A stretch of 64,000 nt of DNA from an uncultured Candidatus Saccharibacteria bacterium (lineage in GTDB: Bacteria > Patescibacteriota > Minisyncoccia > UBA6257): assembly GCA_964479005.1 (NCBI GenBank), contig CAYZJA010000002.1, positions 64,001-128,000 on the forward strand, written 5' to 3'. The notes under the pieces are model-generated. The model was not told the origin of the DNA, ran no database searches, and saw nothing but the letters and a program-made list of their open reading frames with translations. The stretch's first letter is position 1. The number at the start of each line of letters is the position of its first letter. Shown here in pieces: positions 1 through 37,742 of this stretch. Both the position numbers and the translations under genes were made by a program.

Positions 1-714
1 TTAAGTAGCACCATACCAGCATCCTTCAGTAATACAATAATCACTGCCTGGATATGAACCATATCCAGTTGCTTCCATTAAAGATACATGGAGATGATTT
101 CCCTCATCTAATACTGCCAATCCAGCTTTATTAAATTCTGCTATTATTTTTTTATTATCTTCAGAACTATTTGAAACTGAATCTATATCTACACAAGTGC
201 CATCAAGATGACAATCATCGGCTCTCCTTGGCGTATAACTTGTACTATTGCATTCAGCGTCAATACAGGCATCATTTACCCACCACTTCGGATTTATATC
301 TTTTAATAGAAGTAATTTATTTGCTAACGTGGAATCTAAATAAGCTTCTGATTGACCAAATGTATTATCATTTATTGGAATCCCCATATCTCTTATATTA
401 ACTAAATTTTTTGATATAGCCTGATCTTCTGTAGTAACTTCTAGGGTAACTTCTGATGAGGGCAGGGTTATTGTATCAGAAGAACCTTTTAGAATATCAG
501 GATTGATAGTATAAAGAATAATATAAAAAGCAAACAATAAAAGAAGTCCAATAATGGCGCCTGTGATTCTTTCTTGGGCGTCTTTTTGTTGGGCAGTATT
601 ACCTCCAGAAGTAAGGTATTGAAAACCAGCATAAACAATCATGGCAAAAGCTAAAATTCCAGCGAGGCGAAAAGCCCACCAAATAAAAGTCTCGATTAAG
701 CTTATTGGAGTCAT
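1..714 (-). CDS. VirB2/TrbC-like pilin module (signal/TM helix, 'VYAGFQYLTSGGN', second hydrophobic helix) fused to a C-terminal Zn peptidase M15-like domain
   Basis: The N-terminal ~75 aa match the pilin-like module shared with ORFs 33971-34312, 34589-35092 and 35099-36412. The C-terminus has 'CHLDGTCVDID' (H-x2-G-x3-D) and 'EGNHLHV' (E-x-x-H), as in VanY/peptidase M15 zinc sites. The stop codon lies at window position 1-3, so the ORF is complete. Confidence 0.55.
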   Translation of the reverse strand: MTPISLIETFIWWAFRLAGILAFAMIVYAGFQYLTSGGNTAQQKDAQERITGAIIGLLLLFAFYIILYTINPDILKGSSDTITLPSSEVTLEVTTEDQAISKNLVNIRDMGIPINDNTFGQSEAYLDSTLANKLLLLKDINPKWWVNDACIDAECNSTSYTPRRADDCHLDGTCVDIDSVSNSSEDNKKIIAEFNKAGLAVLDEGNHLHVSLMEATGYGSYPGSDYCITEGCWYGAT

Positions 715-723
715 AAGTTTTTA

Positions 724-1419
724 TTAAAATTGAGTAACATCGCCAGGATTAACTAGTCCAGGAATTCCTATTTCCCATTGGTAAGATTCAAAAATAGGAT
801 ATTCAATTGACTGTATGTTTGGTGGAGCTGGTGGTTCTGGCAATGTTTGCAGAAATGTCTGCAGAATTTCATTTAAAATTATTGGGCATATTTGGGTAAT
901 AAGAATAGCCATTGAGGTGCCAACTGTTGTGCCAAAAACCATTATATTTGCAGTTGCATCTGAAAGTGATTTACAGATATGCTCAATATCTACATGTTTA
1001 AGTAATAAATCTAAAATCCAACTTTTGACAAGTCCTGAAATATCATTATTTCCGTTTATTGCGCTTATAACCAATAATTTTAAGTCTTCTGGAATTACTT
1101 CATTATTCTGTATGATATTTATGAGTTCGTCTTTAACAGTATCTGTAATGTTCCCGTCATTTTGTATTGAGTTTATGAGATATGGTTTTAAATCTTCTGG
1201 AATCTCTTGACTGTTCTGTATTATGTTTATAAGTTCATTTTGAGTAAGTTCTGCTAATTCTGCGCCATCATTAAGGTTTGTTATTGTATCTAAGACCCCT
1301 TGTGGATCCAAAAAAGCCTGAGTTTGTATTGGGACTAAAAATAAACCACCTAATCCCAAATTTAATATCAAAACAATTAATACTATAGCCTTTGTTTTTT
1401 TGAAGATATTTTTAAGCAT
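724..1419 (-). CDS. secreted/membrane-anchored protein with internal ~20-aa repeats (NELINIIQNxxIPEDLK)
   Basis: N-terminal hydrophobic signal/TM, then three copies of an ELINIIQN..(E/V)IPEDLK repeat. Lies in a co-directional operon with the T4SS genes. Confidence 0.5.
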   Translation of the reverse strand: MLKNIFKKTKAIVLIVLILNLGLGGLFLVPIQTQAFLDPQGVLDTITNLNDGAELAELTQNELINIIQNSQEIPEDLKPYLINSIQNDGNITDTVKDELINIIQNNEVIPEDLKLLVISAINGNNDISGLVKSWILDLLLKHVDIEHICKSLSDATANIMVFGTTVGTSMAILITQICPIILNEILQTFLQTLPEPPAPPNIQSIEYPIFESYQWEIGIPGLVNPGDVTQF

Positions 1420-1441: not shown

Positions 1442-1810
1442 TTAGACTTTTTTTGGCGATGTTGCAGACGTAAGTTTAGTTACAGACGCAAGCTTAGCTG
1501 TTTTTTTTATTGCTTTTTTAACAGGTGCTGGTGATTTTTGGAGTGCATAGACAAGTATAACAGTTAAAGTGGCAATGGGCAAAATACTGGCAAATGGTAT
1601 AAGATCTAATGCTTGACCAATAAAAATCCATGTACCTCTTATTCCGCTGATAAGTGTAATAACAAAGATATAAATGACGAGAGGCAGGACAATAACCCAA
1701 ACAAAGAGGTTAATTCCAGGAATAAATCCCAAAAAGATTTCTATAACATCTTTAATAATGGATGTTATAAGCAAGAATAAAAATATTGTTAAGCTCATTT
1801 TATTTTTCAT
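1442..1810 (-). CDS. small polytopic membrane protein (T4SS cluster)
   Basis: Three to four hydrophobic helices and a basic C-terminus; separated from its neighbours by small gaps. Confidence 0.45.
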   Translation of the reverse strand: MKNKMSLTIFLFLLITSIIKDVIEIFLGFIPGINLFVWVIVLPLVIYIFVITLISGIRGTWIFIGQALDLIPFASILPIATLTVILVYALQKSPAPVKKAIKKTAKLASVTKLTSATSPKKV

Positions 1811-1820
1811 AGAATAATAT

Positions 1821-3611
1821 TTATTCTTTTTTGAACTCCTCTTTAGCTTTCCTAATATCTATAAGTTGAGCTGGGTTTGAGGTAATAATTTGGTCTTCAG
1901 CATAAGAAGCGATAATCTGAATGGCAGCATGTTTGTCTTCTGCAAAAAAGAGACCTGTGCCAACAGAAGCTTGCAAAAGGATGGTTTTTTCTTGTTCTGT
2001 AAGATTTAAGGCTTTGCCTATGATATCAATATTCGCAGGCGACTGTCTTAGTAAAAGGGCTAAAGCAGAGTTGGTAATTAATGGTTTTCCATAAGGTGAT
2101 TTTAAAGCGTCTTCTATGTCCTGTGTAATAAAGGTTACTCCCATATAATACTTTCGCGCTCTTTTAACTAAACCAAAAAGAAAAGACGCGCTTTCTTCGT
2201 GGCGTAACAACCACCATCCTTCATCAATTATTACAACCCTTTTTCTTAAATCCTTTTTTATCATTGTCCATATGTAATTTAATACTACATACATGGCAAT
2301 AGGCCTAAGTTCTTCTTCTAATTCTCTTACGCCAAAGATAACTAAACGATTGTTAATATTAATATTCGATGGTTGATTAAGGAAGCCAGCATAGCTTCCT
2401 TTGGTGAATTTATAAAGTTTTGCAGCTAAATCTTCGCCTCCCTCGGTATTTTTAAGAACATTCTCTAGATCTTCCATTAATGGCAGATTTTTTTTCTCAA
2501 CCATATTTTCAGGAAAAATATCCCGACTTGCGTATGTTTGTACAATGGCTCTATCTAGCATAAGTTCTTCCTGAGGAGAAAGACCTTTAAGCATTAACTT
2601 AATTAGGCCAATAAGATTTAAAATATGGTTGCGAAAAACTTCTTCGCCAGTTTCCTCTTTTTTTACTGTAGGAAGTTCAAATGGATTAATATTATCATCA
2701 GAAGCAACAGATATTTTAAAGTAGCTTCCGCCAATTGAATCAGCCAAGTATTCATACTCATTTTCCGGATCAATAATCAATACATTAGTTCCTAGTAATA
2801 ATGAACGAAGGATTTCTAATTTTATAGCATAACTTTTTCCTGCGCCAGCTTGGGCAAAAACTATCATATTTGCGTTTGGTAGAACAAAGCGGTCAAAAAT
2901 AATCAAGCTATTATTATGCAGATTAACGCCATAAAGGATTCCTTTGTTTTCTGAAAGGTCTAAAGAAGAAAAAGGGAAAAGGGTTGAAGCCGGCTGTGAA
3001 TTTAAGGGAGTAGTTAATAATAATCTATCTATTCCCAATGGTAAGGAAGATTCCATTCCTTCGAATTCTCTAAAGACAGTTGGTTTTGCGTAAATTAACT
3101 GCTGCTCTAATACATTTTTGATTTTACTTTCTATTTTTATAAGTTCCTCCTTGTCATTGGCAAAAAAAGTGATATAAACACCTACTTCAAAAAGTTTTTC
3201 ACTACCTTGTTGGATAGTATCTCTTAGTTTTTCAATATTATTTAAAGCAGCTTCTAATAAGGGGTTACGAACTAATCCTCTATCTGCTTCAATGCTTAAT
3301 TGAGCTTGAATTTCTGCAGATTTTTTTCTTAAATTTCTTAAAACCTTATTAATATTAAGAGGGTGGAAAAAGATTGAAATATTAAAAGATTCATCCAAAT
3401 TAATAATTGAGGAAAACCAATTAGAGGCTAAATAATTTGGATAAGTTAGGATAAAAAGAGTTGAACAATATTTATTTCCTAATTTGAGAAAGTTAGTATT
3501 AATTTCTAATCCAGCAGGGGAAATTAAGTCCTGAAGAGTAGAAACAGCCTGGGATTGCGCTACCACTTGCGGGTTTTTAGGTTTTCTTTTAAATAAGTTT
3601 GGAAAACGCAT
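1821..3611 (-). CDS. VirB4/TrbE/TraC-like type IV secretion ATPase
   Basis: Walker A 'FAQAGAGKSYAI' and Walker B-like 'RVVIIDEGWWLL'; ~600 aa, typical of Gram-positive/CPR VirB4 homologues. Confidence 0.8.
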   Translation of the reverse strand: MRFPNLFKRKPKNPQVVAQSQAVSTLQDLISPAGLEINTNFLKLGNKYCSTLFILTYPNYLASNWFSSIINLDESFNISIFFHPLNINKVLRNLRKKSAEIQAQLSIEADRGLVRNPLLEAALNNIEKLRDTIQQGSEKLFEVGVYITFFANDKEELIKIESKIKNVLEQQLIYAKPTVFREFEGMESSLPLGIDRLLLTTPLNSQPASTLFPFSSLDLSENKGILYGVNLHNNSLIIFDRFVLPNANMIVFAQAGAGKSYAIKLEILRSLLLGTNVLIIDPENEYEYLADSIGGSYFKISVASDDNINPFELPTVKKEETGEEVFRNHILNLIGLIKLMLKGLSPQEELMLDRAIVQTYASRDIFPENMVEKKNLPLMEDLENVLKNTEGGEDLAAKLYKFTKGSYAGFLNQPSNININNRLVIFGVRELEEELRPIAMYVVLNYIWTMIKKDLRKRVVIIDEGWWLLRHEESASFLFGLVKRARKYYMGVTFITQDIEDALKSPYGKPLITNSALALLLRQSPANIDIIGKALNLTEQEKTILLQASVGTGLFFAEDKHAAIQIIASYAEDQIITSNPAQLIDIRKAKEEFKKE

Positions 3612-3614
3612 ATT

Positions 3615-4295
3615 TTATTTATTAAATTCTTCTGGAATATTTATGGATTCTCTTTCAAAAGCTTCTGGGTTGTATGAATTGAAAAATAATTCAATCAGTT
3701 CTTTAGTAGTTAATGGTCGTGATTGTAATCCCATTCTAGTTAAATTCGTAATGATATTATTTTGTCTGATTATTAATTGTTGATAATGCTGACGAAAGCT
3801 TTCATCAGAAAGAGGGATTGTGGCGGAAAATGCCTGGTGCCTTAAATTAAGCAATGTTTTATAAGCTTCTAATATTTGGCTTAACGCGGTCTTTGGTTTA
3901 ATCATAATGGGGTCATAGGGCACTATTACATAGAATTTCTTTTTCATAATATTGTTTCCAGTAACAAGTCCTTTAATGAATGTATAATAATCCTCTCCTT
4001 GCAGTTTAAGCAGATTATTTGTTTCTTGACCAATCTTTTCCTGAAGAAAATTTAAATATGATTCAATATTAACGCGCCTAGAATGAGCTACAACTTGCAA
4101 TGGAAAATCTAAGTTATTTATAAGATTACGCCAGCTCATTAACACGGAAGATTGTTCTTCTTCTGATTTTAAATCAAAATTTATACCTGATACTTCTAAA
4201 ACCGAACGGAGCGAACCGTTTTTAAGAATAACTACCCCTTTTCTAATTTGTTGAAGGGAAATGAGTGACTGGCTACTGAAAGTTTCTTTAGGCAT
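3615..4295 (-). CDS. hypothetical protein (T4SS cluster)
   Basis: 226-aa ORF tightly packed between the VirB3-like and VirB4 genes; no recognisable motif. Confidence 0.45.
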   Translation of the reverse strand: MPKETFSSQSLISLQQIRKGVVILKNGSLRSVLEVSGINFDLKSEEEQSSVLMSWRNLINNLDFPLQVVAHSRRVNIESYLNFLQEKIGQETNNLLKLQGEDYYTFIKGLVTGNNIMKKKFYVIVPYDPIMIKPKTALSQILEAYKTLLNLRHQAFSATIPLSDESFRQHYQQLIIRQNNIITNLTRMGLQSRPLTTKELIELFFNSYNPEAFERESINIPEEFNK

Positions 4296-4712
4296 CTATT
4301 TATCTAATATATCGGTTAATTGTTTAAGTGTTTTTTTGTCCAATTGTTTTTTAATCTGTGTTTTTACTGTGGGTTTAGGCTTTTGAGAAACAGAATAAGA
4401 TACTTTCGAAAAAGTTTTTTCTTTTTTCCATAGATAGTATTTTGGAAGCCAAAAATGTCTGATTGCGGCAATGGCGAGTGTATAAATAGGAACACTATGG
4501 ATTTTCCCAAATGCGAGAGAAAAACCGACTGGAGCGAGAATCATTGCTAAAATTAACCAAAGCCATGGTTTTAAAACAGAAAAAAGTAAAAGGAGGAGTC
4601 CTCCAAAAGATAATAAAATCCATAATTGGGTAAAGGTAATCCAACCCATTAATTTTGTTTCCTCTTTTATAAATTGAGGCACTTGATAAGTCATATTTTT
4701 AAGCTTTACCAA
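4296..4712 (-). CDS. VirB3/PrgI-like small membrane protein
   Basis: 138 aa with two adjacent TM helices and a basic tail; sits upstream of VirB4 in the same operon. Confidence 0.45.
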   Translation of the reverse strand: MVKLKNMTYQVPQFIKEETKLMGWITFTQLWILLSFGGLLLLLFSVLKPWLWLILAMILAPVGFSLAFGKIHSVPIYTLAIAAIRHFWLPKYYLWKKEKTFSKVSYSVSQKPKPTVKTQIKKQLDKKTLKQLTDILDK

Positions 4713-5589
4713 AAGGACTTTTTTTCTGATATTTTTTATAAGGAATAGGCTTTTGGATAGTAGGCGTTTCTTCTTTTTTTTCTTTTTCCTTTTTTAATTT
4801 AACGTCAAGGATATATGGTTTTTCTTTTTTAGTTTTCACAAAAACTTCTTCATCCTCAAATTCTTTTCCTTCACCGCTTAAAATTTTAGAGGGCGTTAAT
4901 TCTCCTATTCTTTTCTTTTCTAATATTTCCTTTTCTTCTCTTTTTGCTTCTTTGGGCGATGGGGGTTTTAAAGAGACTTTTTTCATTTCTTCAACAATCT
5001 TCGGTTGGACGGGTTTTCTCTGCATTGCCGCCAATAGCTTTGCTCTGATTTTTTCTTGTTGTTCTGAAGAAATTTTTGGAGCAACAACTTTTTTTAATTC
5101 CTCTATTTTACTAACTGGTTTTTCCACTTTTACTTCAGATGGTTCAGGCAAAGAATATTCAGGAATAATTGGTTCAGAAGGCATTTGTTCTGTAATGGTT
5201 TGTTCAATTTTTTCTTTCGTAATAGGCTTTATCTTTGAGGGCTTTTGCGGAATTCTTTGCTCTAAAGGTTGAGGTTTGTATTGGTTCAATTCTTTCTCAA
5301 ATATTTTAAAGATTTTTCCTTCAATTACTTTGTTAACAATTTGAGCTGCTACTGGAGAAATATTAATTCTTCTTTCTAATTCATTTTTGAATTGATCTTT
5401 AGATAATTGAAAAGATAAAATTTCTGTTATGATGTCCATAACACTAGAAAATTTTTCAGATGAAACTTTGCCCAAATTTAAAGCATCATCTATAATTGCC
5501 CCCATCTTGTCAGAGGCCAAAAAGTCCTGAATACGAAATGGAAGTTTATTGAATGATTTTAAGAATTTGTTTTTGTTCGTTTCTTCCAT
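4699..5589 (-). CDS. Lys/Glu-rich hypothetical protein (T4SS cluster)
   Basis: 296 aa, highly charged; overlaps the next gene by 14 nt, consistent with translational coupling. Confidence 0.45.
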   Translation of the reverse strand: MEETNKNKFLKSFNKLPFRIQDFLASDKMGAIIDDALNLGKVSSEKFSSVMDIITEILSFQLSKDQFKNELERRINISPVAAQIVNKVIEGKIFKIFEKELNQYKPQPLEQRIPQKPSKIKPITKEKIEQTITEQMPSEPIIPEYSLPEPSEVKVEKPVSKIEELKKVVAPKISSEQQEKIRAKLLAAMQRKPVQPKIVEEMKKVSLKPPSPKEAKREEKEILEKKRIGELTPSKILSGEGKEFEDEEVFVKTKKEKPYILDVKLKKEKEKKEETPTIQKPIPYKKYQKKSPFGKA

Positions 5590-5603
5590 ATTCCTCAGTA
5601 AGA

Positions 5604-7820
5604 TTAAAAAGGCAAAAATTCTGCCAAGAAACGATTTTTGTCGTATTTTCTTCTTTTGAGCTCTTGTTTAACAGTTTCTTCATTTCCGTGGATTTTGTCT
5701 TGGACAGATTTTACAAGTTTTTGTGCCCATTTTGTTTGTTTTTCAGTATCATTTGTTGACCTAAGCATAGCAGCAAAATTTCCAGCTGGAAGATTTTTAT
5801 CTAAAAGAGTATAGAAAAATCGATTGGTATGCTGTGGTCCTTTTTCTTCTAATCTTTCAAGAATGTTTTCCCAATTACCTAATTTTATATCATCAGGCGA
5901 AGATTTTAGCAGTTGTTCTGCTATAAGATTAGTGATAACACGATTTTTAGCTTCATCACGAGAGACTCCATGGAATCTTCGCTTCATCTGTTCTATTGCT
6001 TTGTCCATATCTTCAGGTTTTGTAAAGTATTTAGCATGAAGTTCTGGATGAATTTTTTTAATTCCTGAAACATTTAAATTAGGTTGATTTTTAGCTATTT
6101 CGATGAACTTGCTATCTTTTTTATAATCCAGTGATTCTTTTCCTATTAATGTGTTAACACCCAAAGCCATTCTTCCCCCATCTGTCTTATGTGCTTCCAT
6201 ATCAACTCTAATTTGATCTGGGCTTCTTCCTTTATAATCTTCTTCAATTTGTTTTAGTTCAGCTTCGCGAACTTTCCTAGGCTGCCTACCCATCCAAACC
6301 CCTATGTCATGTGTAGGCGCAAATTTGCTGTCTTCTAATTTTTTCTGAGCTTTTCTCCATGGTTCTGAGCTTACGGCTCCTTTTAATGCTTTATGACCAA
6401 GGAAGGCGCCAGCTACTGCTCCAGCCTTAGTAGTTTGTTTCATAACTAATTGAGATGCTGCTCCTCCGCTTTGGAGGGAGAAAATTAATCCTCCTACCAA
6501 AAACATAGAGAATAAAATCATTTGCACTATTGTTGAAGTTACAGAGTCTGCGCCGATTGATATTTGACTCATTCCACTCATTGCTATTATAGCAATATAC
6601 AGTATAAAACTAAAAATAACAGGAAAAAAACACCATTTTATAAATTGTTGCCACCACATTTTCCAATATTTTTCTGTATCTGGGAAAATCCAACAAGCAA
6701 AAACGATAGGGGATAAACCTAGAAGCATAATTAAAATGAATGCTCTGAAAATTATTGTCAAGAAAATAGCAAGCAAAGCAATAACAGCAAAACCTCCAAC
6801 CAATATCATTATAAAGCTGATTATGAAAAAGTTACCAAAACGTAGGCTATAACTCTCTACTTCCGTTGCTGCTGTTGTAGTTGCTGTACCAGTATCTCCA
6901 AGACCTAGAATTTTTGGCGTTTCATATTTATCCTCGCCAAATAAAACAGGAGGATCAAATGTTTTTGTATCCGCTGATTGTTGTTCTTGTTCAATATAAC
7001 TAAAACTTTCCATTATACGAGGGGCAAGGCTTTCATTTTTTTCTTGAGCAATGTTTAGAAAATATACTGAGAGATAATTAGAAGTATCTACTATGATTCC
7101 TGATATAACTAAACTGAAGTTTACTAACAAAGCAACAAGTATTAATTTCCAAAGGATTTGTTTCCAAGCATATTTTTTATAACCAAGAATAGTTGCGATA
7201 GCAATACCTATTAACCCTAAAACTAAAAGTGCGTTAACTAAATTGCGCATCATTTCCCATATTTGTATAACACCATCATTTGTAGCAAATCCGCCATAAG
7301 TTTTCGGATTTAACGCTTTTAATATCCAGCCTATTTCTAAATCTATTAATCCAGCAAACATTTTACCCAAACCTTCAAGTATGGCTTTTGTAGTAACACA
7401 CCACATGTCTGCAATCACTACTTTTATTTCGCATCCAAGCGCATCTAACCCCCAACCATACCTCGCTGCGCATTCCTGCATTCCCTCTTCAAAGTTCTTC
7501 TTACAAAGACCTTCTGGCCTTTCTTCTTGAAGTCTGGTTTTTATTGTCTGTGCTCCATGTCTTATCTCTGTTGTCCCAGGTTCAGGATTTGGAATACAAC
7601 ATTGCTCACTACCAAATCCAGGACAACTCAAAGAAGATTCAATGTAATCTTCTAAATCACTACATTTTGTTGTCTTTTTAACAACACATGTACCTCCTGC
7701 TTCTTCGCAGTCAGACCCAGCTCTTACTTGTGAAATATCAGTTTTTAAAACAGGGCTGATTAGTAATGTAAGAATAACTATGCTAAAAACCCCAATTTTT
7801 AATATATTTTTTGTTTTCAT
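5604..7820 (-). CDS. VirB6/TrbL-like polytopic membrane protein with Cys-rich N-terminal ectodomain and C-terminal soluble domain
   Basis: Signal peptide, about seven TM helices in the central region, and a Thr-rich linker 'TGTATTTAATE'; first gene of the minus-strand T4SS operon. Confidence 0.55.
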   Translation of the reverse strand: MKTKNILKIGVFSIVILTLLISPVLKTDISQVRAGSDCEEAGGTCVVKKTTKCSDLEDYIESSLSCPGFGSEQCCIPNPEPGTTEIRHGAQTIKTRLQEERPEGLCKKNFEEGMQECAARYGWGLDALGCEIKVVIADMWCVTTKAILEGLGKMFAGLIDLEIGWILKALNPKTYGGFATNDGVIQIWEMMRNLVNALLVLGLIGIAIATILGYKKYAWKQILWKLILVALLVNFSLVISGIIVDTSNYLSVYFLNIAQEKNESLAPRIMESFSYIEQEQQSADTKTFDPPVLFGEDKYETPKILGLGDTGTATTTAATEVESYSLRFGNFFIISFIMILVGGFAVIALLAIFLTIIFRAFILIMLLGLSPIVFACWIFPDTEKYWKMWWQQFIKWCFFPVIFSFILYIAIIAMSGMSQISIGADSVTSTIVQMILFSMFLVGGLIFSLQSGGAASQLVMKQTTKAGAVAGAFLGHKALKGAVSSEPWRKAQKKLEDSKFAPTHDIGVWMGRQPRKVREAELKQIEEDYKGRSPDQIRVDMEAHKTDGGRMALGVNTLIGKESLDYKKDSKFIEIAKNQPNLNVSGIKKIHPELHAKYFTKPEDMDKAIEQMKRRFHGVSRDEAKNRVITNLIAEQLLKSSPDDIKLGNWENILERLEEKGPQHTNRFFYTLLDKNLPAGNFAAMLRSTNDTEKQTKWAQKLVKSVQDKIHGNEETVKQELKRRKYDKNRFLAEFLPF

Positions 7821-7853: not shown

Positions 7854-8669
7854 TTATACAATATTTTTGATTAACAAGGAAGAAAGAGAAATCCATTCTT
7901 TTATGGAAAGATTTTGCGCCCTTGTATTTAGCGGCATGTTTAATTGTATGAATATTTTTTGGAGAACGTCTCTTTTTATACTGAGATTTTTGGAGAGATT
8001 ATTTATAAGCAATTTTCTTGGTTGCTTAAAACCAGCTTTTATAACTTTGAAAAAAGATTGCGGAGTTTGCCCGCCTAAATTTTGTTTCAAAATTTTAGCG
8101 GGTAAAGGAGTTATTTTAATAACAGCAGAGTCTACTTTAGGTTCTGGATAAAAAGCGGTTCTTGGAACATAGCAAATGATTTCTGGTTTTGCATAAAATT
8201 GTACAGAAGCGGATAGAAGATTCATTTTTGGTGGTTGAGCTATTATTCTTTCAGCCACCTCTTTTTGAATCATTAAAACTATTAATTTAGGTTTAATTGG
8301 ATTTTCTAAAAGTAAACGCAAAAGTCGCGAAGTTAAATAATAAGGAATATTGCCGATGGCCTTGTATTCAGTATTCAGTATTCTGTATTCAGTGTTTTGG
8401 AGGAAGTCTCGAATATCTCCTTGGATAATTTTTAAATTTAATTTGTCTTTAAAGTAATCTTTCAGGAATTTTACTAATTCTGGGTCTTTTTCAACAGCGA
8501 TTATTTCAGCACCAGTTTTCAAAAAAGCTTGAGTTAAAATGCCCTTTCCTGGTCCAATTTCTAAAATTTGATCTTTGGAGTTGATATCTGCTGCTTGGAT
8601 AATCTTTTGTATAGTCTCCTCGTCCTTAAGGAAAACTTGCCCTAATTTTTTTTGTTTTCTTGTTATCAT
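7854..8669 (-). CDS. ksgA: 16S rRNA (adenine1518/1519-N6)-dimethyltransferase KsgA/RsmA
   Basis: 'KKLGQVFLKD', SAM-binding motif 'ILEIGPGKGILT' and 'NIPYYLTS'. Confidence 0.85.
   Translation of the reverse strand: MITRKQKKLGQVFLKDEETIQKIIQAADINSKDQILEIGPGKGILTQAFLKTGAEIIAVEKDPELVKFLKDYFKDKLNLKIIQGDIRDFLQNTEYRILNTEYKAIGNIPYYLTSRLLRLLLENPIKPKLIVLMIQKEVAERIIAQPPKMNLLSASVQFYAKPEIICYVPRTAFYPEPKVDSAVIKITPLPAKILKQNLGGQTPQSFFKVIKAGFKQPRKLLINNLSKNLSIKRDVLQKIFIQLNMPLNTRAQNLSIKEWISLSSLLIKNIV
8364..8392. repeat. ~4 tandem copies of the heptamer GTATTCA (3 x 7 = 21-nt periodicity) inside ksgA
   Basis: Sequence 'gtattcagtattcagtattctgtattcag'; it encodes the duplicated 'NTEYRILNTEYKA'. Confidence 0.6.
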
Positions 8670-33813: not shown

Positions 33814-33898
33814 GCGGACGTGGTGAAATTGGAAAACACATAGGACCTAGAATCCTATGCCGAAAGGCTTGTGGGTTCGAGTCCCACCGTCCGCACCA
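33814..33898 (+). tRNA. tRNA-Leu(TAG), class II, CCA encoded
   Basis: Acceptor GCGGACG/CGTCCGC, anticodon stem ATAGGA/TCCTAT with loop CCTAGAA, long variable arm. Preceded by a 17-nt partial duplicate of its 5' end (33797-33813). Confidence 0.7.
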
Positions 33899-33970
33899 GT
33901 TCAATAAAATTAAAAACCCCGTTTTAACGGGGTTTTTAAATGATAGCCGAAAAATTACCAAACAATTTTT

Positions 33971-34312
33971 TTAAAAGGTAACTGTTTTTCCGAGAAATGT
34001 ACCTACTACATACATTAATCCTTTAGCTAATAATGCTACACCTATACCTATTAAAGCATGTACAAGACCACTTAATGCTTTTTTTGCTTTTTCGTCATCT
34101 CCTGCAGCAGTGATATAGAGCCACCCTGAATAGACAATGTAAAGTGCTGCTATAAAGAGCACAATATTAAAAAACCACTGTACAGTTTTTTCTAGAAGAG
34201 TCCAAATGTCAACTCCGGTTGCTGATGGAAGATCTTGTACAGTATAGGCGCCAAAAACAGGGATAGCTATCAACATTGTCATGGCTAAAATAGGCAAAAT
34301 AATTTTTTTCAT
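33971..34312 (-). CDS. VirB2/TrbC-like pilin (stand-alone pilin module)
   Basis: 113 aa: signal peptide, 'IVLFIAALYIVYSGWLYITAAGDDEKAKKALSGLVHALIGIGVALLAKG', two hydrophobic helices. Confidence 0.55.
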   Translation of the reverse strand: MKKIILPILAMTMLIAIPVFGAYTVQDLPSATGVDIWTLLEKTVQWFFNIVLFIAALYIVYSGWLYITAAGDDEKAKKALSGLVHALIGIGVALLAKGLMYVVGTFLGKTVTF

Positions 34313-34370
34313 TTTTTTATTTGATTAAAATTAGTTTCATATTCGACCTTTTTTCTTTAATGTAAATTAT

Positions 34371-34470
34371 AACAACCTTTCGCTAAAACTCAAGAACGTT
34401 GAATTAAAACTAGTAAGTTTTAATATTAACAACCTTTCGCTAAAACTCAAGAACGTTTCAATCAAAATGT
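34371..34470 (+). repeat. tandem copies (one full ~57 nt, one partial) of the repeat AACAACCTTTCGCTAAAACTCAAGAACGTTGAATTAAAACTAGTAAGTTTTAATAT
   Basis: Full copy at 34371-34427, second copy starting 34428; a third copy in inverted orientation lies at 46243-46300, and the core CAAGAACGTTGAA occurs at 30447-30459. Confidence 0.7.
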
Positions 34471-34588
34471 ATCATTTCAATTATTTAATATATATTGAAA
34501 TATATATTAAAATTAAAATAAAAGTATTTTAATTATAGCAAATTGCAATCGTGATATCAACATAAATTTTAATTTTCAAAAGGAGAAT

Positions 34589-35092
34589 TTATATTTGAAT
34601 AGACTCAGGAAGTTCATTATCTATTTCTTCTATTTCTTCAGATTCTCCAAAAATAAATTCTTCAATAATAGTGGGCACGCTGCTGGCTATTAGAACAACG
34701 CCAAATCCTATTAAAGCCCAGATAAGAGCCTTTTGCGCAGTTTTTACTTTGTCTTCATTTCCAGCAGAAGTGATATATAAATATCCCGCATAAACTACTA
34801 AGATTGCAGTGATTGGAATAGCCAATCTAATTAAGAAATTAATGATATTTTTTATTAAAGAGGTAATATCACCTGTTTCTCCATATGGGTTGATATATAA
34901 ACCAGTAGACGTTGGACTACTATCATTGGTAGAACCAACTTCTTCTTCGGTGTTTCCGATTTCCACATCAATAGGAATCTCTGCCTGACTTTGTATTGGG
35001 CTTAAAAATAAGCTTAACAATACTAAATTAATAATTAGAATAGTTAATAAGACGATATTTATTTTTGTAGAATTTTTTGACATTGATTTCAT
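34589..35092 (-). CDS. pilin-module protein with N-terminal acidic extension and acidic C-terminal tail
   Basis: N-terminal TM, acidic linker, then 'LAIPITAILVVYAGYLYITSAGNEDKVKTAQKALIWALIGFGVVLIA'. Confidence 0.5.
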   Translation of the reverse strand: MKSMSKNSTKINIVLLTILIINLVLLSLFLSPIQSQAEIPIDVEIGNTEEEVGSTNDSSPTSTGLYINPYGETGDITSLIKNIINFLIRLAIPITAILVVYAGYLYITSAGNEDKVKTAQKALIWALIGFGVVLIASSVPTIIEEFIFGESEEIEEIDNELPESIQI

Positions 35093-35098
35093 AATTGG

Positions 35099-36412
35099 TT
35101 AATTATTATTAAACTCACATTTTCCTCCTGGTCCAAAAGTGTTTGTGAATTCACAGTCTCCAAGAGAAATACATTCGTCTTTATCGCAAACATTAAACAA
35201 ACCTATTCCACAGTTTTCACATTTAGATTCTAGTTCTATTTCTGGTTCTGTCTCTGGTTCTACTGGGCTGACGGGTGTTTCATCGTCTTCTGAGATACAA
35301 TAAGCAAAAGATTTACCTTCTGGGCTTGGGCTATTAATATTGCTTTTTCCAAAATCACAATGCCATCCATTCCCATAAATTTCTCCTGGCGGATTGAGTA
35401 ATTTACTTGGTTCTACGGCAAGACAGAAACCATCTTTTATCTTTTTTTCTATTCCACACTCAGCTGCTCCAGAAGCTTGATTACAGTTCTGATCCCACTC
35501 AGGGCACATAATTGGATATTCAATCCATTCTCCATCTAAATCGGGATATTTTTCTTCTATTTCATCTTTCTTCTCATTAATTTGTTCTTCAGGAGGAGTA
35601 TAATCAGGATCAATAATACAATCAATATATAAAGTGCCTGTTGGAGGGTAGCAAGGATTAATCTCTGAGCCAGTAGGGCTAGTATCTCCTACAAATTTAC
35701 AATATCGTCCTTTTCCATTGCTTATTATTTTATCTTCGGTTGTAATTGAATGTTCTCCTGGTTTGCATTTACTTCTATCTAATTTAAATCCATCTGCGCA
35801 TTCACGGGAGATTGTTATAGGTAAACACATTTGATTTGAATCACTAATAGTGTATTGTACAGCATTTTCCCATTCTTCTTCCTCATCAACTTCATCAACA
35901 TCCTCCTCATCAGGAATTACGTCTTCTTCTCCTTCGCTGGGAGTTGTACCGTCTTCAGGCAGATCAAGTATAGAGCCAGGTTCAGGGCATTCTATATGAA
36001 ACCAAGTTCCTGTATAATCATCACCACCCATTTGTTTGATTGTCCAAAATACAGTATTAACAATTATCCAAGCAGTCAAAATAATAATTAATCCTATAAT
36101 AGCATTTGTTATAATTTGTTGTCCAGCCTTAAGATTTTCTTCCTTACCAAGAGAGAATATCCAGCGAAATCCTCCATAGACAATAAATCCAATTATGATA
36201 AGAAAAGCCATTTCTAAGGCAAATTCTAAAACATTTTGCGTTAAGACCAATAAATCACAAGTAGTACAAGCCTGCTCACCAGGACCTCCACACGGAACCA
36301 ACCCAGCAGCGCTTGTTAAAGAAGGTGTAAAAAGCAGGAGAGTCAGGAGAGAAAAAACAATTAATTTATTATTTAATTTTGTATGTTTTATGTTCCGCGT
36401 TCCACGTTTCAT
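35099..36412 (-). CDS. pilin-module protein fused to a ~300-aa Cys-rich acidic extracellular domain (adhesin/tip-like)
   Basis: Signal peptide and 'AFLIIIGFIVYGGFRWIFSLGKEENLKAGQQIITNAIIGLIIILTAWII'. The C-terminal domain has more than 20 Cys and a poly-acidic stretch 'EDVDEVDEEEEWE'. Confidence 0.5.
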   Translation of the reverse strand: MKRGTRNIKHTKLNNKLIVFSLLTLLLFTPSLTSAAGLVPCGGPGEQACTTCDLLVLTQNVLEFALEMAFLIIIGFIVYGGFRWIFSLGKEENLKAGQQIITNAIIGLIIILTAWIIVNTVFWTIKQMGGDDYTGTWFHIECPEPGSILDLPEDGTTPSEGEEDVIPDEEDVDEVDEEEEWENAVQYTISDSNQMCLPITISRECADGFKLDRSKCKPGEHSITTEDKIISNGKGRYCKFVGDTSPTGSEINPCYPPTGTLYIDCIIDPDYTPPEEQINEKKDEIEEKYPDLDGEWIEYPIMCPEWDQNCNQASGAAECGIEKKIKDGFCLAVEPSKLLNPPGEIYGNGWHCDFGKSNINSPSPEGKSFAYCISEDDETPVSPVEPETEPEIELESKCENCGIGLFNVCDKDECISLGDCEFTNTFGPGGKCEFNNN

Positions 36413-36428
36413 GTTTCACGTTTTATGT

Positions 36429-37742
36429 TTATTGTTTTTTATTCCAAAAAAGATTAATTCTATCAGATGCGGTGATTATTGCTTGAATCGGGGATTTGCC
36501 TTTATGAGTAACATCTTCTATCATTTCTTTAAATATTTGATTAATTTCCTGAAAATTATATTGATGCCAATTTTGGCTTGTTAGAATTTGTCTTGTGAAT
36601 ATTCCACTAGCAGGTTCATTAACATAATTTTGAATTAAGTCTAATCTGGCAGGGGGGTTTTTTGTTTGAAGATAATAGAATTTAGCGGTATTCTGTTGCG
36701 CAAGAAATTTTAAAAACGTCCAACATACTTCAGGGGATTTTGAATTTTGAGAAACCACTAAACTCATTGTATCCCCATAATTTATCTTGTTGGAAGAATT
36801 GGCAGTAAATTGTGGCAGAGAAGCAATACCATAATTAAGATTAGGATTGTACTCTCTTATAATCTTTTGGGCTTGATTATATCCAATTAACATAGCAGTT
36901 TCCCCTTTACTAAAAGCAATTACCGAATCAGTAAAGTTATCATTCCAAGTATAGTAACGGGAACGAGAGTCACTAAATTGAGTATAAAATTTTAATGCTT
37001 CTTCGCAAGGCAAAATTTTTTTGCCATTGATCAATGAATCATATCTAAAAGTTGTTTGTTTTTTATCTATATCAACAATATTACCGCCATATTGCATTAT
37101 TAAAGCCGATATAATATCAAAATTCCATCGAACATTATAAGGAGATCCCAATGCGATTGCTGCTCGTGTAATCTGTCCTTGATTATTAATTCTGCGCAAA
37201 CGGGAAATTAAATTAAGAACTTCTTCCCATGTGGCAGGGGGGAGAGCAATATTATAATAGTTTAAAATATCCTGATTATAATAAAGGGCTAAACTATCAA
37301 CATATAAAGGAACACCAAGCAAATAGTCACCTTTTACCAATTCATTTTTTGCTATTTGAGGATAGGTTTGGTCTAAATCAAATAAGTTTAAATCTTTATC
37401 CTTTTTTAAGTCCAAATGGGAAATTTTATTTTGATAGTAAGGAAGATTGCTATTCCAAAGCATAAAGATATCTGGAGCTTGATTATCACTAAAAGCTTTT
37501 AGGAGATTTTCATGATAAGTGTCTTCGTCTTTTAATGTATAATTAATACGAGTGTAAGGATATTTCTTTTGAAAATTATCAATTATCGGTAAAAATGTTT
37601 TAGAATCATCCAATATCCCCCAAATTTCTAAACTAACAGGTGTTGGTCTGGTTCTCTGAAATCTTATTCCTAAAAAAATAATAGAAATAATAATTAAACC
37701 GGCGACTAATAGAATCTTTTTTTGGCGTGAAGTTAATGTCAT
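36429..37742 (-). CDS. extracellular solute-binding protein (ABC transporter, family 1-like)
   Basis: N-terminal TM anchor and ~430-aa periplasmic-binding-protein-like size and composition; weak motif support. Confidence 0.5.
   Translation of the reverse strand: MTLTSRQKKILLVAGLIIISIIFLGIRFQRTRPTPVSLEIWGILDDSKTFLPIIDNFQKKYPYTRINYTLKDEDTYHENLLKAFSDNQAPDIFMLWNSNLPYYQNKISHLDLKKDKDLNLFDLDQTYPQIAKNELVKGDYLLGVPLYVDSLALYYNQDILNYYNIALPPATWEEVLNLISRLRRINNQGQITRAAIALGSPYNVRWNFDIISALIMQYGGNIVDIDKKQTTFRYDSLINGKKILPCEEALKFYTQFSDSRSRYYTWNDNFTDSVIAFSKGETAMLIGYNQAQKIIREYNPNLNYGIASLPQFTANSSNKINYGDTMSLVVSQNSKSPEVCWTFLKFLAQQNTAKFYYLQTKNPPARLDLIQNYVNEPASGIFTRQILTSQNWHQYNFQEINQIFKEMIEDVTHKGKSPIQAIITASDRINLFWNKKQ

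Follow-up and report, generated by a model that had tools for sequence, protein, structure and literature searches.

The DNA analysed here, called the window below, is a stretch of 64,000 nucleotides from an uncultured Candidatus Saccharibacteria bacterium (assembly GCA_964479005.1, contig CAYZJA010000002.1, positions 64,001 to 128,000). The window is AT-rich (33% GC) and carries many housekeeping and tRNA genes, and its matching database proteins bear the names Candidatus Nealsonbacteria or Paceibacterota. Four open reading frames (ORFs), all on the minus strand and encoding proteins of 237, 113, 167 and 437 residues, were confirmed at the positions given in an initial annotation of the window (Table 1). 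All four contain a pilin module of a type IV secretion system (T4SS), which in three of them is followed by a C-terminal extension. In ORF 1-714, which closes a T4SS operon, the extension is a domain resembling Hedgehog proteins and DD-peptidases; in ORF 34589-35092 it is a short acidic tail and in ORF 35099-36412 a Cys-rich region. The latter two genes and ORF 33971-34312, which encodes a stand-alone pilin, form a tandem array 26 kb from virB4.

Table 1. Features of the window; residue numbers are those of the encoded proteins, and helices and confidence values (predicted local distance difference test, pLDDT) come from AlphaFold2 (AF2) models.
Feature	Positions	Strand	Description
Pilin with Hedgehog/DD-peptidase-like domain	1-714	-	237 residues, no signal peptide; closes the T4SS operon
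Pilin module, residues 1-75	490-714	-	AF2 helices 3-35 and 40-70; ends at the invariant TINPDIL boundary
Flexible Ser/Thr/acidic linker, residues 76-99	418-489	-	pLDDT <50 for residues 77-99
Zn peptidase-like domain, residues 100-237	4-417	-	Six Cys; DD-peptidase fold, zinc motif
Stand-alone pilin	33971-34312	-	113 residues, signal peptide; PF18895 46.7 bits; candidate major pilin
167-residue pilin	34589-35092	-	Signal peptide, ~40-residue spacer, pilin module, acidic tail
Pilin module, residues 75-138	34679-34870	-	PF18895 33 bits
Acidic tail, residues 141-167	34592-34672	-	10 Asp/Glu in 27 residues
Pilin with Cys-rich cargo	35099-36412	-	437 residues; PF18895 35.6 bits
Pilin module, residues 37-128	36029-36304	-	AF2 helices 50-87 and 91-128
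Acidic disordered linker, residues 129-178	35879-36028	-	pLDDT <50 for residues 129-176
Two tandem beta-sandwich modules, residues 179-380	35273-35878	-	~90 residues and 6 Cys each
C-terminal 6-Cys knot, residues 397-437	35102-35224	-	Conserved C-x2-C-G...C...EC...LG.C...GPGGKC
p231, secreted protein	724-1419	-	Same frame as ORF 1-714
Remainder of operon upstream of p231	1442-7820	-	p122, VirB4, TraC-like, PrgI/VirB3-like, p296, VirB6-like
VirB4	1821-3611	-	Pfam P-loop_TraG, AAA_10 and CagE_TrbE_VirB above cut-off
TraC-like	3615-4295	-	T4SS operon member
PrgI/VirB3-like	4296-4712	-	Pfam PrgI 24.7 bits, just short of the cut-off of 27
VirB6-like	5604-7820	-	Pfam TrbL 25.2 bits, just short of the cut-off of 25.9
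ksgA-like methyltransferase	7854-8669		Flanks the T4SS operon
tRNA-Leu(tag)	33814-33898		Strand opposite to the stand-alone pilin
Terminator-like hairpin	33910-33939	-	13-bp stem and T run, after the stand-alone pilin
45-nt direct repeat, two copies	34365-34409, 34422-34466		87% identity, spacing 57 nt
Promoter-like site TTGATA-17-TATAAT	34532-34560	-	11/12 positions, extended TG; consensus match only
SBP_bac_1	36429-37742	-	Membrane-anchored

Each of the four proteins scores above the gathering cut-off of the Pfam family PF18895 (T4SS_pilin; 26.6 bits), with 32.1 bits for ORF 1-714, 46.7 for ORF 33971-34312, 33.0 for ORF 34589-35092 and 35.6 for ORF 35099-36412 and E-values from 1e-7 to 3e-12. 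A hidden Markov model (HMM) built from the four modules matched only these four among the 925 stop-to-stop ORFs of the window, the next-best match having E = 0.15. Circularity limits the HMM test but not the Pfam result, which is independent. The scores and the lack of a fifth HMM copy in the window make the shared module, first proposed from the sequence alone, real, specific and far beyond chance. In an alignment, the modules are ~24-32% identical to each other in pairs, and the V-Y-x-G, G, K and A-x-I-G positions of the motif originally described are invariant. The alignment and the AF2 models of ORFs 1-714 and 35099-36412 agree on a hairpin of two hydrophobic helices connected by a short polar loop. 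By inspection, three of the ORFs appear to have a signal peptide, which is absent from ORF 1-714.

The initial annotation called the module VirB2/TrbC-like. Its pilin character stands through PF18895, but the cut-off of the TrbC/VirB2 family itself (PF04956; 27.9 bits) is not reached, the only match among the four being that of ORF 34589-35092 with 21.4 bits. Related members of the family do pass this cut-off. Sub-threshold matches of ORFs 33971-34312 and 34589-35092 to the NCBIfam Mbov_0395 family (34-35 bits against a cut-off of 40), which comprises pilin-like conjugal transfer proteins of Mycoplasma integrative and conjugative elements, link the module to another wall-less/monoderm T4SS lineage.

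The proposed tie to the T4SS is borne out by the neighborhood. In all 11 related loci that were recovered, the gene directly after the VirB4 operon encodes a pilin of the ORF 1-714 type; the other three pilin genes, 26 kb away, keep their synteny in GCA_964618625.1. Every cargo homologue that was found, apart from two short fragments, uses the pilin hairpin, which supports reading the module as a pilin rather than as a generic transmembrane anchor.

The cargo domain of ORF 1-714 was modeled with the fold of DD-peptidases, in which helices pack against one face of a central antiparallel sheet. The Hedgehog/DD-peptidase (LAS) group is defined by an H-x6-D and an H-x-H motif, the latter preceded by a catalytic Glu (PMC6027127). 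As the initial annotation had claimed, a peptidase motif of this kind is present, in the segments CHLDGTCVDI and DEGNHLH: H169 and D176 form the H-x6-D pair, H207 and H209 the H-x-H pair, and E204 is the candidate catalytic Glu (codons at nucleotides 88-210). In an alignment of homologues, H169, G172, D176, E204 and H209 never vary and H207 rarely does, and E204 is retained in all of the 21 close and 13 divergent sequences. One subfamily (loci L008, L009 and L011) has a single His instead of H-x-H and an insert of 8-14 residues after the Glu. The domain is found in 24 homologous clusters with 44-93% identity, every one of them fused to PF18895, and the linker in front of it varies in length and sequence. 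Its six Cys, for which three disulfides are predicted, would fit an extracellular, disulfide-bonded protein.

Searches of Pfam (E up to 10), NCBIfam and PHROGs gave no match for residues 100-237; curated M15 and HH_signal models gave no significant match, and phmmer against the Protein Data Bank (PDB) returned only a chance beta-lactamase match. A profile of 13 divergent cargo sequences, compared with PDB sequences, ranked Hedgehog-N at the top with an E-value of only ~0.2, the alignment falling exactly over the HxxGxxVDI and HxH segments. The best structural matches, too, are Hedgehog proteins and not enzymes. It is thus because of fold and motif, and not of sequence-family membership, that the domain is considered to be, probably, an active and divergent zinc peptidase of M15-like fold. 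An origin from a phage endolysin found no support, as a scan of viral contigs gave no relative of the domain.

Seven of the 11 loci carry the same peptidase-like domain, and one locus is masked. In two others (L012 and L014) the cargo is longer and divergent, ending in SHKYGCSVDI...HLH or KHATGEAFDL...HIH. The closest near-complete relative, with a VirB4 96% and a pilin module 90% identical to those of the window, has a plain pilin of 127 residues with a signal peptide. In yet another homologue (P0193) the module is 99% identical to that of the window, and the protein stops four residues past the invariant NPDIL, followed directly by jag. Cargo-less versions of this pilin terminate just after NPDIL. 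The peptidase cargo is gained or lost between near-identical strains at a fixed hinge after helix 2, and it is therefore accessory equipment. The presence of a signal peptide varies independently of the cargo; forms that lack it and begin at the first helix recur (P0001-3, P0006, P0007, P0015 and P0193).

The secreted protein p231 is encoded immediately upstream in the same frame, and the gap (715-726) holds only TAA TAA and three codons. In the pilins of L012 and L014 the C-terminal motif of p231, WEIGIPGLVNPG / YQWEIGIPGLVNPG, stands before helix 1, and in L007 (9296-10735) the homologues of p231, pilin and peptidase form a single ORF of 479 residues. The two look like a gene pair that has been repeatedly split and fused. 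Read-through from ORF 724-1419 into ORF 1-714 is unlikely, given the two TAA codons and the recurrence elsewhere of the form without a signal peptide.

ORF 35099-36412 contains 22 Cys, 18 of them downstream of the pilin module, and Asp and Glu account for 22 of 55 residues in its linker; more than 20 Cys and a poly-Asp/Glu stretch had been claimed for it. The model is confident only for residues ~180-375, which are an internal duplication of a ~90-residue module with six aligned Cys. The best fold matches of residues 179-380 are weak (Z at most 7.6, Foldseek E = 0.013): resistin and the C-terminal Cys/His-rich domain of PCSK9 consist, likewise, of tandem small disulfide-rich beta-sandwich modules, but have no sequence similarity to those of the window, and their function is not transferable. 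Residues 126-437 have no Pfam match even at E up to 10 and none in NCBIfam or PHROGs, and no adhesin or Ig-like domain was recognized by Pfam in this cargo. The extension has homologues in 17 clusters, of which 15 contain PF18895 and two are short fragments; one homologue is named 'pilin [Ca. Nealsonbacteria]' by NCBI.

A second copy of the 6-Cys knot directly follows the pilin module in P0026, P0029, P0031, P0034 and P0037, and the knot behaves as a shuffled cassette, a mobile mini-module. Four further Cys are invariant and flank the hairpin (35987-36292), namely Cys 41, 49 and 52 (LVPC41GG, C49-x2-C52) and Cys 142 (WFHIEC142). Located on the presumed outer side, they might staple the N- and C-flanks together, as a possible counterpart of the head-to-tail cyclization of TrbC/VirB2. 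The end of the SBP_bac_1 gene, which encodes a solute-binding protein, and the start of the Cys-rich pilin gene are 16 nt apart, and this pairing, with no transporter gene in between, is conserved in L001-L003.

The 113-residue product of ORF 33971-34312 is a pilin-like protein on its own, as annotated, and an identical protein is encoded on a 551-kb contig. The promoter-like site of Table 1 is situated upstream of its gene. This pilin is 53% identical to its syntenic orthologue in GCA_964618625.1 (L001, 12043-12405), and the Cys-rich pilin is 70% identical to its own, whereas the flanking ValRS, PrsW, HSP20, SBP, methyltransferase and GyrA are 90-98% identical. Such a low identity is expected of an exposed major subunit, which the stand-alone pilin probably is. 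The orthologue of the 167-residue pilin in L001 is 86% identical; the acidic tail ascribed to this protein comprises its last 27 residues, 10 of them Asp or Glu. Divergence or replacement is concentrated locally in the pilin genes. The two 45-nt repeats are located in the 276 nt that separate the stand-alone pilin gene from the pilin gene upstream of it, and their first copy overlaps another promoter-like site (34393-34366), weaker than that at 34560-34532. Between the tRNA-Leu gene and the stop codon of the stand-alone pilin lie 72 nt.

The module family has 71,343 representatives at 50% identity (E up to 1e-3). A word-indexed search with the pilin profile gave only proteins of at most 132 residues, and the search of representatives, with its summed-score ranking, was dominated by multi-module proteins. 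To gauge the frequency of fusions, 80 metagenome loci were therefore sampled by a pattern of the pilin module, whatever the length of the protein. A locus holds as many as nine complete pilin ORFs and the sample 196, of which 48 (24%) have 80-595 extra C-terminal residues that are mostly Cys-rich. Both cargo types of the window are among the 48, together with at least 18 extensions that match neither. Extensions are thus a widespread habit of the pilin family, and the architecture of the window is one example of it. The only domains that Pfam recognized in the pilin fusions scanned were bacterial Ig-like, Big_2 in a protein from the search of representatives and Big_5 in one metagenome locus. 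Among six other pilin cargos, Big_5 was the only match above the cut-off, FGE-sulfatase remaining sub-threshold, and an impression that some resemble transglycosylases or NlpC/P60 enzymes was discarded. There are also many single ORFs with 2 to 16 tandem PF18895 modules joined by short linkers (P0042-P0191), which may be called polypilins. Examples are P0042 (552 residues, 6 modules), P0071 (1775 residues) and P0097 (11 Pfam stretches), and several pass the cut-offs of both PF18895 and TrbC.

The T4SS operon reads, in order, VirB6-like, p296, PrgI/VirB3-like, TraC-like, VirB4, p122, p231 and the pilin of ORF 1-714, and this order is kept in loci L004-L014. It is flanked in the window by the ksgA-like gene, assigned by reading of the sequence, and in relatives by jag-yidC-rnpA-rpmH-dnaA, an arrangement already published for Paceibacteria (PMC12102498). 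Neither a coupling protein nor a relaxase was noted in the Pfam scan of the operon. Lytic transglycosylase, muramidase and CHAP domains had no Pfam match in ORF 1-714 or the other scanned operon proteins, among which, with p296 searched by NCBIfam only, there is no recognizable wall hydrolase besides the ORF 1-714 domain. Residues 37-76 of the VirB6-like protein (7593-7712), after its signal/anchor helix, form a Cys-rich stretch, CEEAGGTCVVKKTTKCSDLEDYIESSLSCPGFGSEQCC, a further disulfide-type extracellular element of the same T4SS. The pilin array is bordered by the SBP_bac_1 gene on one side and by tRNA-Leu, HSP20, PrsW and ValRS genes on the other, a placement conserved in a 484-kb contig of GCA_964618625.1. 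The 64 kb contain 19 tRNA genes, several of them grouped in small clusters. An alternative genetic code is unlikely, as long housekeeping ORFs read normally with table 11.

VirB2-like pilins, arrays of 2-11 pilin genes and T4SS loci beside dnaA have been published for Patescibacteria (PMC12102498, PMC10633639, PMC12857230), and the pilins were called the most remarkable feature of these T4SSs (PMC12857230). The reported mean identity of the paralogues is 25% (PMC12102498, PMC10633639). The pilin array is essential in Southlakia epibionticum (PMC10633639), and the T4SS, essential in the one species tested, has a role described as completely unknown (PMC10633639, PMC11665869). Most Patescibacteria genomes with VirB2 have no VirB1 (PMC12102498). 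An extracellular VirB2-like pilus is treated as a possibility (PMC12857230), and no filament is shown in the literature searched. Pilins fused to enzymatic or Cys-rich domains are not mentioned in PMC12102498, PMC10633639, PMC12857230 or the other literature searched.

The genes of the window share with these systems the Pfam family PF18895, the presence of several divergent paralogues per genome and a chromosomal T4SS of monoderm type whose neighbors are ksgA and dnaA/rnpA/rpmH, as is known from Paceibacteria. The published pilins, however, are small and arrayed, whereas three of the four paralogues here have extensions and the three-gene array is 26 kb from virB4. From the TrbC/VirB2 conjugative pilins (PF04956; T-pilus, F-pilus, RP4, R388 TrwL and archaeal Ced/Ted) they differ in scoring below the family cut-off and in giving no evidence of the cyclization that occurs there, the ORF 35099-36412 type having four invariant flanking Cys instead. 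We know of no folded cargo on a classical TrbC/VirB2 pilin.

The cargo of ORF 1-714 shares fold and motif with the LAS peptidases (MEROPS M15 VanX, VanY and LdcB; the Shh N-domain; bacterial Hedgehog-like proteins, PMC6027127). Its CHLDGTCVDI corresponds to LHYEGRAVDI of Shh, and Shh E177 and the ExxH of VanX and VanY provide the counterparts of the catalytic Glu. Unlike known members, it has no Pfam M15 or HH_signal match, has three predicted disulfides and is anchored by a T4SS pilin module. VirB1, PrgK of pCF10 and TraG of pIP501 are likewise cell-wall-active domains encoded in T4SS operons and located outside the membrane. They are lytic transglycosylases, muramidases or CHAP domains without a pilin fusion, whereas the domain described here is of metallopeptidase fold, and close strains can do without it. 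Modular pilins of type IV pili, such as PilB and PilC of Streptococcus sanguinis, have a functional module grafted onto the pilin C-terminus and displayed by the filament; their pilin fold and assembly machine are unrelated to those considered here, and the window pilins lack a class III signal peptide. The 'Pam' pilus of the candidate phyla radiation, an Ig-like donor-strand system, is unrelated as well. The fused architecture is thus a new form of a known pilin family, useful and testable, and no new category of system.

On balance, the most probable explanation is that the four genes encode VirB2-like T4SS pilins, three of them modular, with extracellular C-terminal parts that are accessory and host-adapting. 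The pilins would belong to the chromosomal T4SS of a Paceibacteria/Nealsonbacteria-like member of the Patescibacteria. The data establish the pilin family, the conservation of the fusions, the peptidase fold with its catalytic motif, the place in the operon, the presence or absence of cargo among strains and how frequent such extensions are; the topology, the peptidoglycan substrate, the incorporation into a filament and the role towards a host are inferred. In VirB2/TrbC, both ends of the hairpin are outside the membrane. By analogy, the two-helix hairpin would insert in the membrane here with both of its ends outside. Such a location of the cargo is consistent with its even number of Cys and with linkers of acidic or Ser/Thr type. 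The stand-alone pilin, with its own promoter-like site and terminator-like hairpin, would be the major subunit. In the cargo-bearing paralogues a flexible linker of 25-50 residues would connect the hairpin to the extracellular part. The Hedgehog/DD-peptidase domain, presumably Zn-dependent, most likely cuts stem peptides or cross-links of peptidoglycan at the T4SS, and the wall may be the cell's own or that of the host. The two disulfide-rich beta modules and the Cys knot most likely form a binding module, and the short acidic tail of ORF 34589-35092 would represent a third type of C-terminal part. As minor or accessory subunits, or retained at the base, these paralogues would present the peptidase and the binding module at the T4SS, and the accessory cargo probably adapts the pilus, or the surface of the T4SS, to the envelope of the bacterial host.

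A simpler scheme, less probable but to be taken seriously, is that the PF18895 hairpin does not polymerize and merely tethers an exo-enzyme and a binding protein to the outer membrane face, the peptidase being a wall opener of VirB1 or PrgK type for the cell's own T4SS. The peptidase-pilin is indeed a member of the operon near VirB4 in the 11 loci, no second wall hydrolase was recognized in the scanned operon proteins, and VirB1 homologues are absent from most Patescibacteria with VirB2 (PMC12102498); bacterial Hedgehog-like peptidases with N-terminal membrane helices are also known (PMC6027127). However, the cargo homologues use the pilin hairpin and no generic helix, and the domain is absent from strains whose pilin module is 90-99% and VirB4 96% identical. 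It is therefore not needed to build the T4SS, and this dispensability at the strain level argues against a core assembly role like that of VirB1 and favors an adaptive, host-directed one.

The accessory, host-adapting pilins can also be pictured as parts of a conjugative-type, VirB2-like pilus of the single-membrane Patescibacteria cell, with interchangeable modular subunits that covalently carry enzymes and binding domains. This extension is speculative. The filament or its tip would bind the host bacterium, cut its peptidoglycan and open a conduit for the epibiotic lifestyle, and swapping of cargo at the fixed hinge after helix 2 would tune the host range.

Hedgehog-N acts mainly as a ligand, and the closeness of the cargo fold to Hedgehog proteins raises the idea of a non-catalytic domain that binds the peptidoglycan stem peptide for attachment. 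We consider this unlikely, for the catalytic Glu and every zinc ligand are retained even between divergent subfamilies, whereas Drosophila Hedgehog has two motif positions and the catalytic Glu changed (PMC6027127). It is more doubtful still that the cargo is an effector, recognized or exported by way of the pilin module, cut off within the linker and passed to the host cell or into it. The long disordered linkers, the differences in cargo between strains, as often with effectors, and an operon in which no coupling protein or relaxase was noted, in line with the protein-related function proposed in PMC10633639, would fit such a role. Nevertheless, no processing site or protease was identified, the T4SS channel moves unfolded cytoplasmic substrates, for which disulfide-rich domains are poor candidates, and the cargo domains should already be outside after membrane insertion. 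Artefacts of assembly or of gene calling, or decaying pseudogenes, are hardly credible as an explanation of the fusions: the missing signal peptide of ORF 1-714 and the two in-frame stop codons ahead of it would speak for this, but the form without a signal peptide is found repeatedly, the same architectures occur in dozens of independent metagenomes and metagenome-assembled genomes (JGI, ENA, Logan and NCBI), and catalytic residues and Cys patterns are conserved among the recurring fusions.

If a sizeable fraction of the pilins carries extracellular domains, such as the conserved zinc peptidase-like domain that ends the Paceibacteria T4SS operon and the Ig-like or Cys-rich modules found elsewhere, these would offer concrete handles on how the T4SS acts at the host surface. 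Cargo-bearing pilins may also explain why most such T4SSs lack a recognizable VirB1. If true, the principle of the modular pilin would be extended from type IV pili to pilins of the conjugative type.

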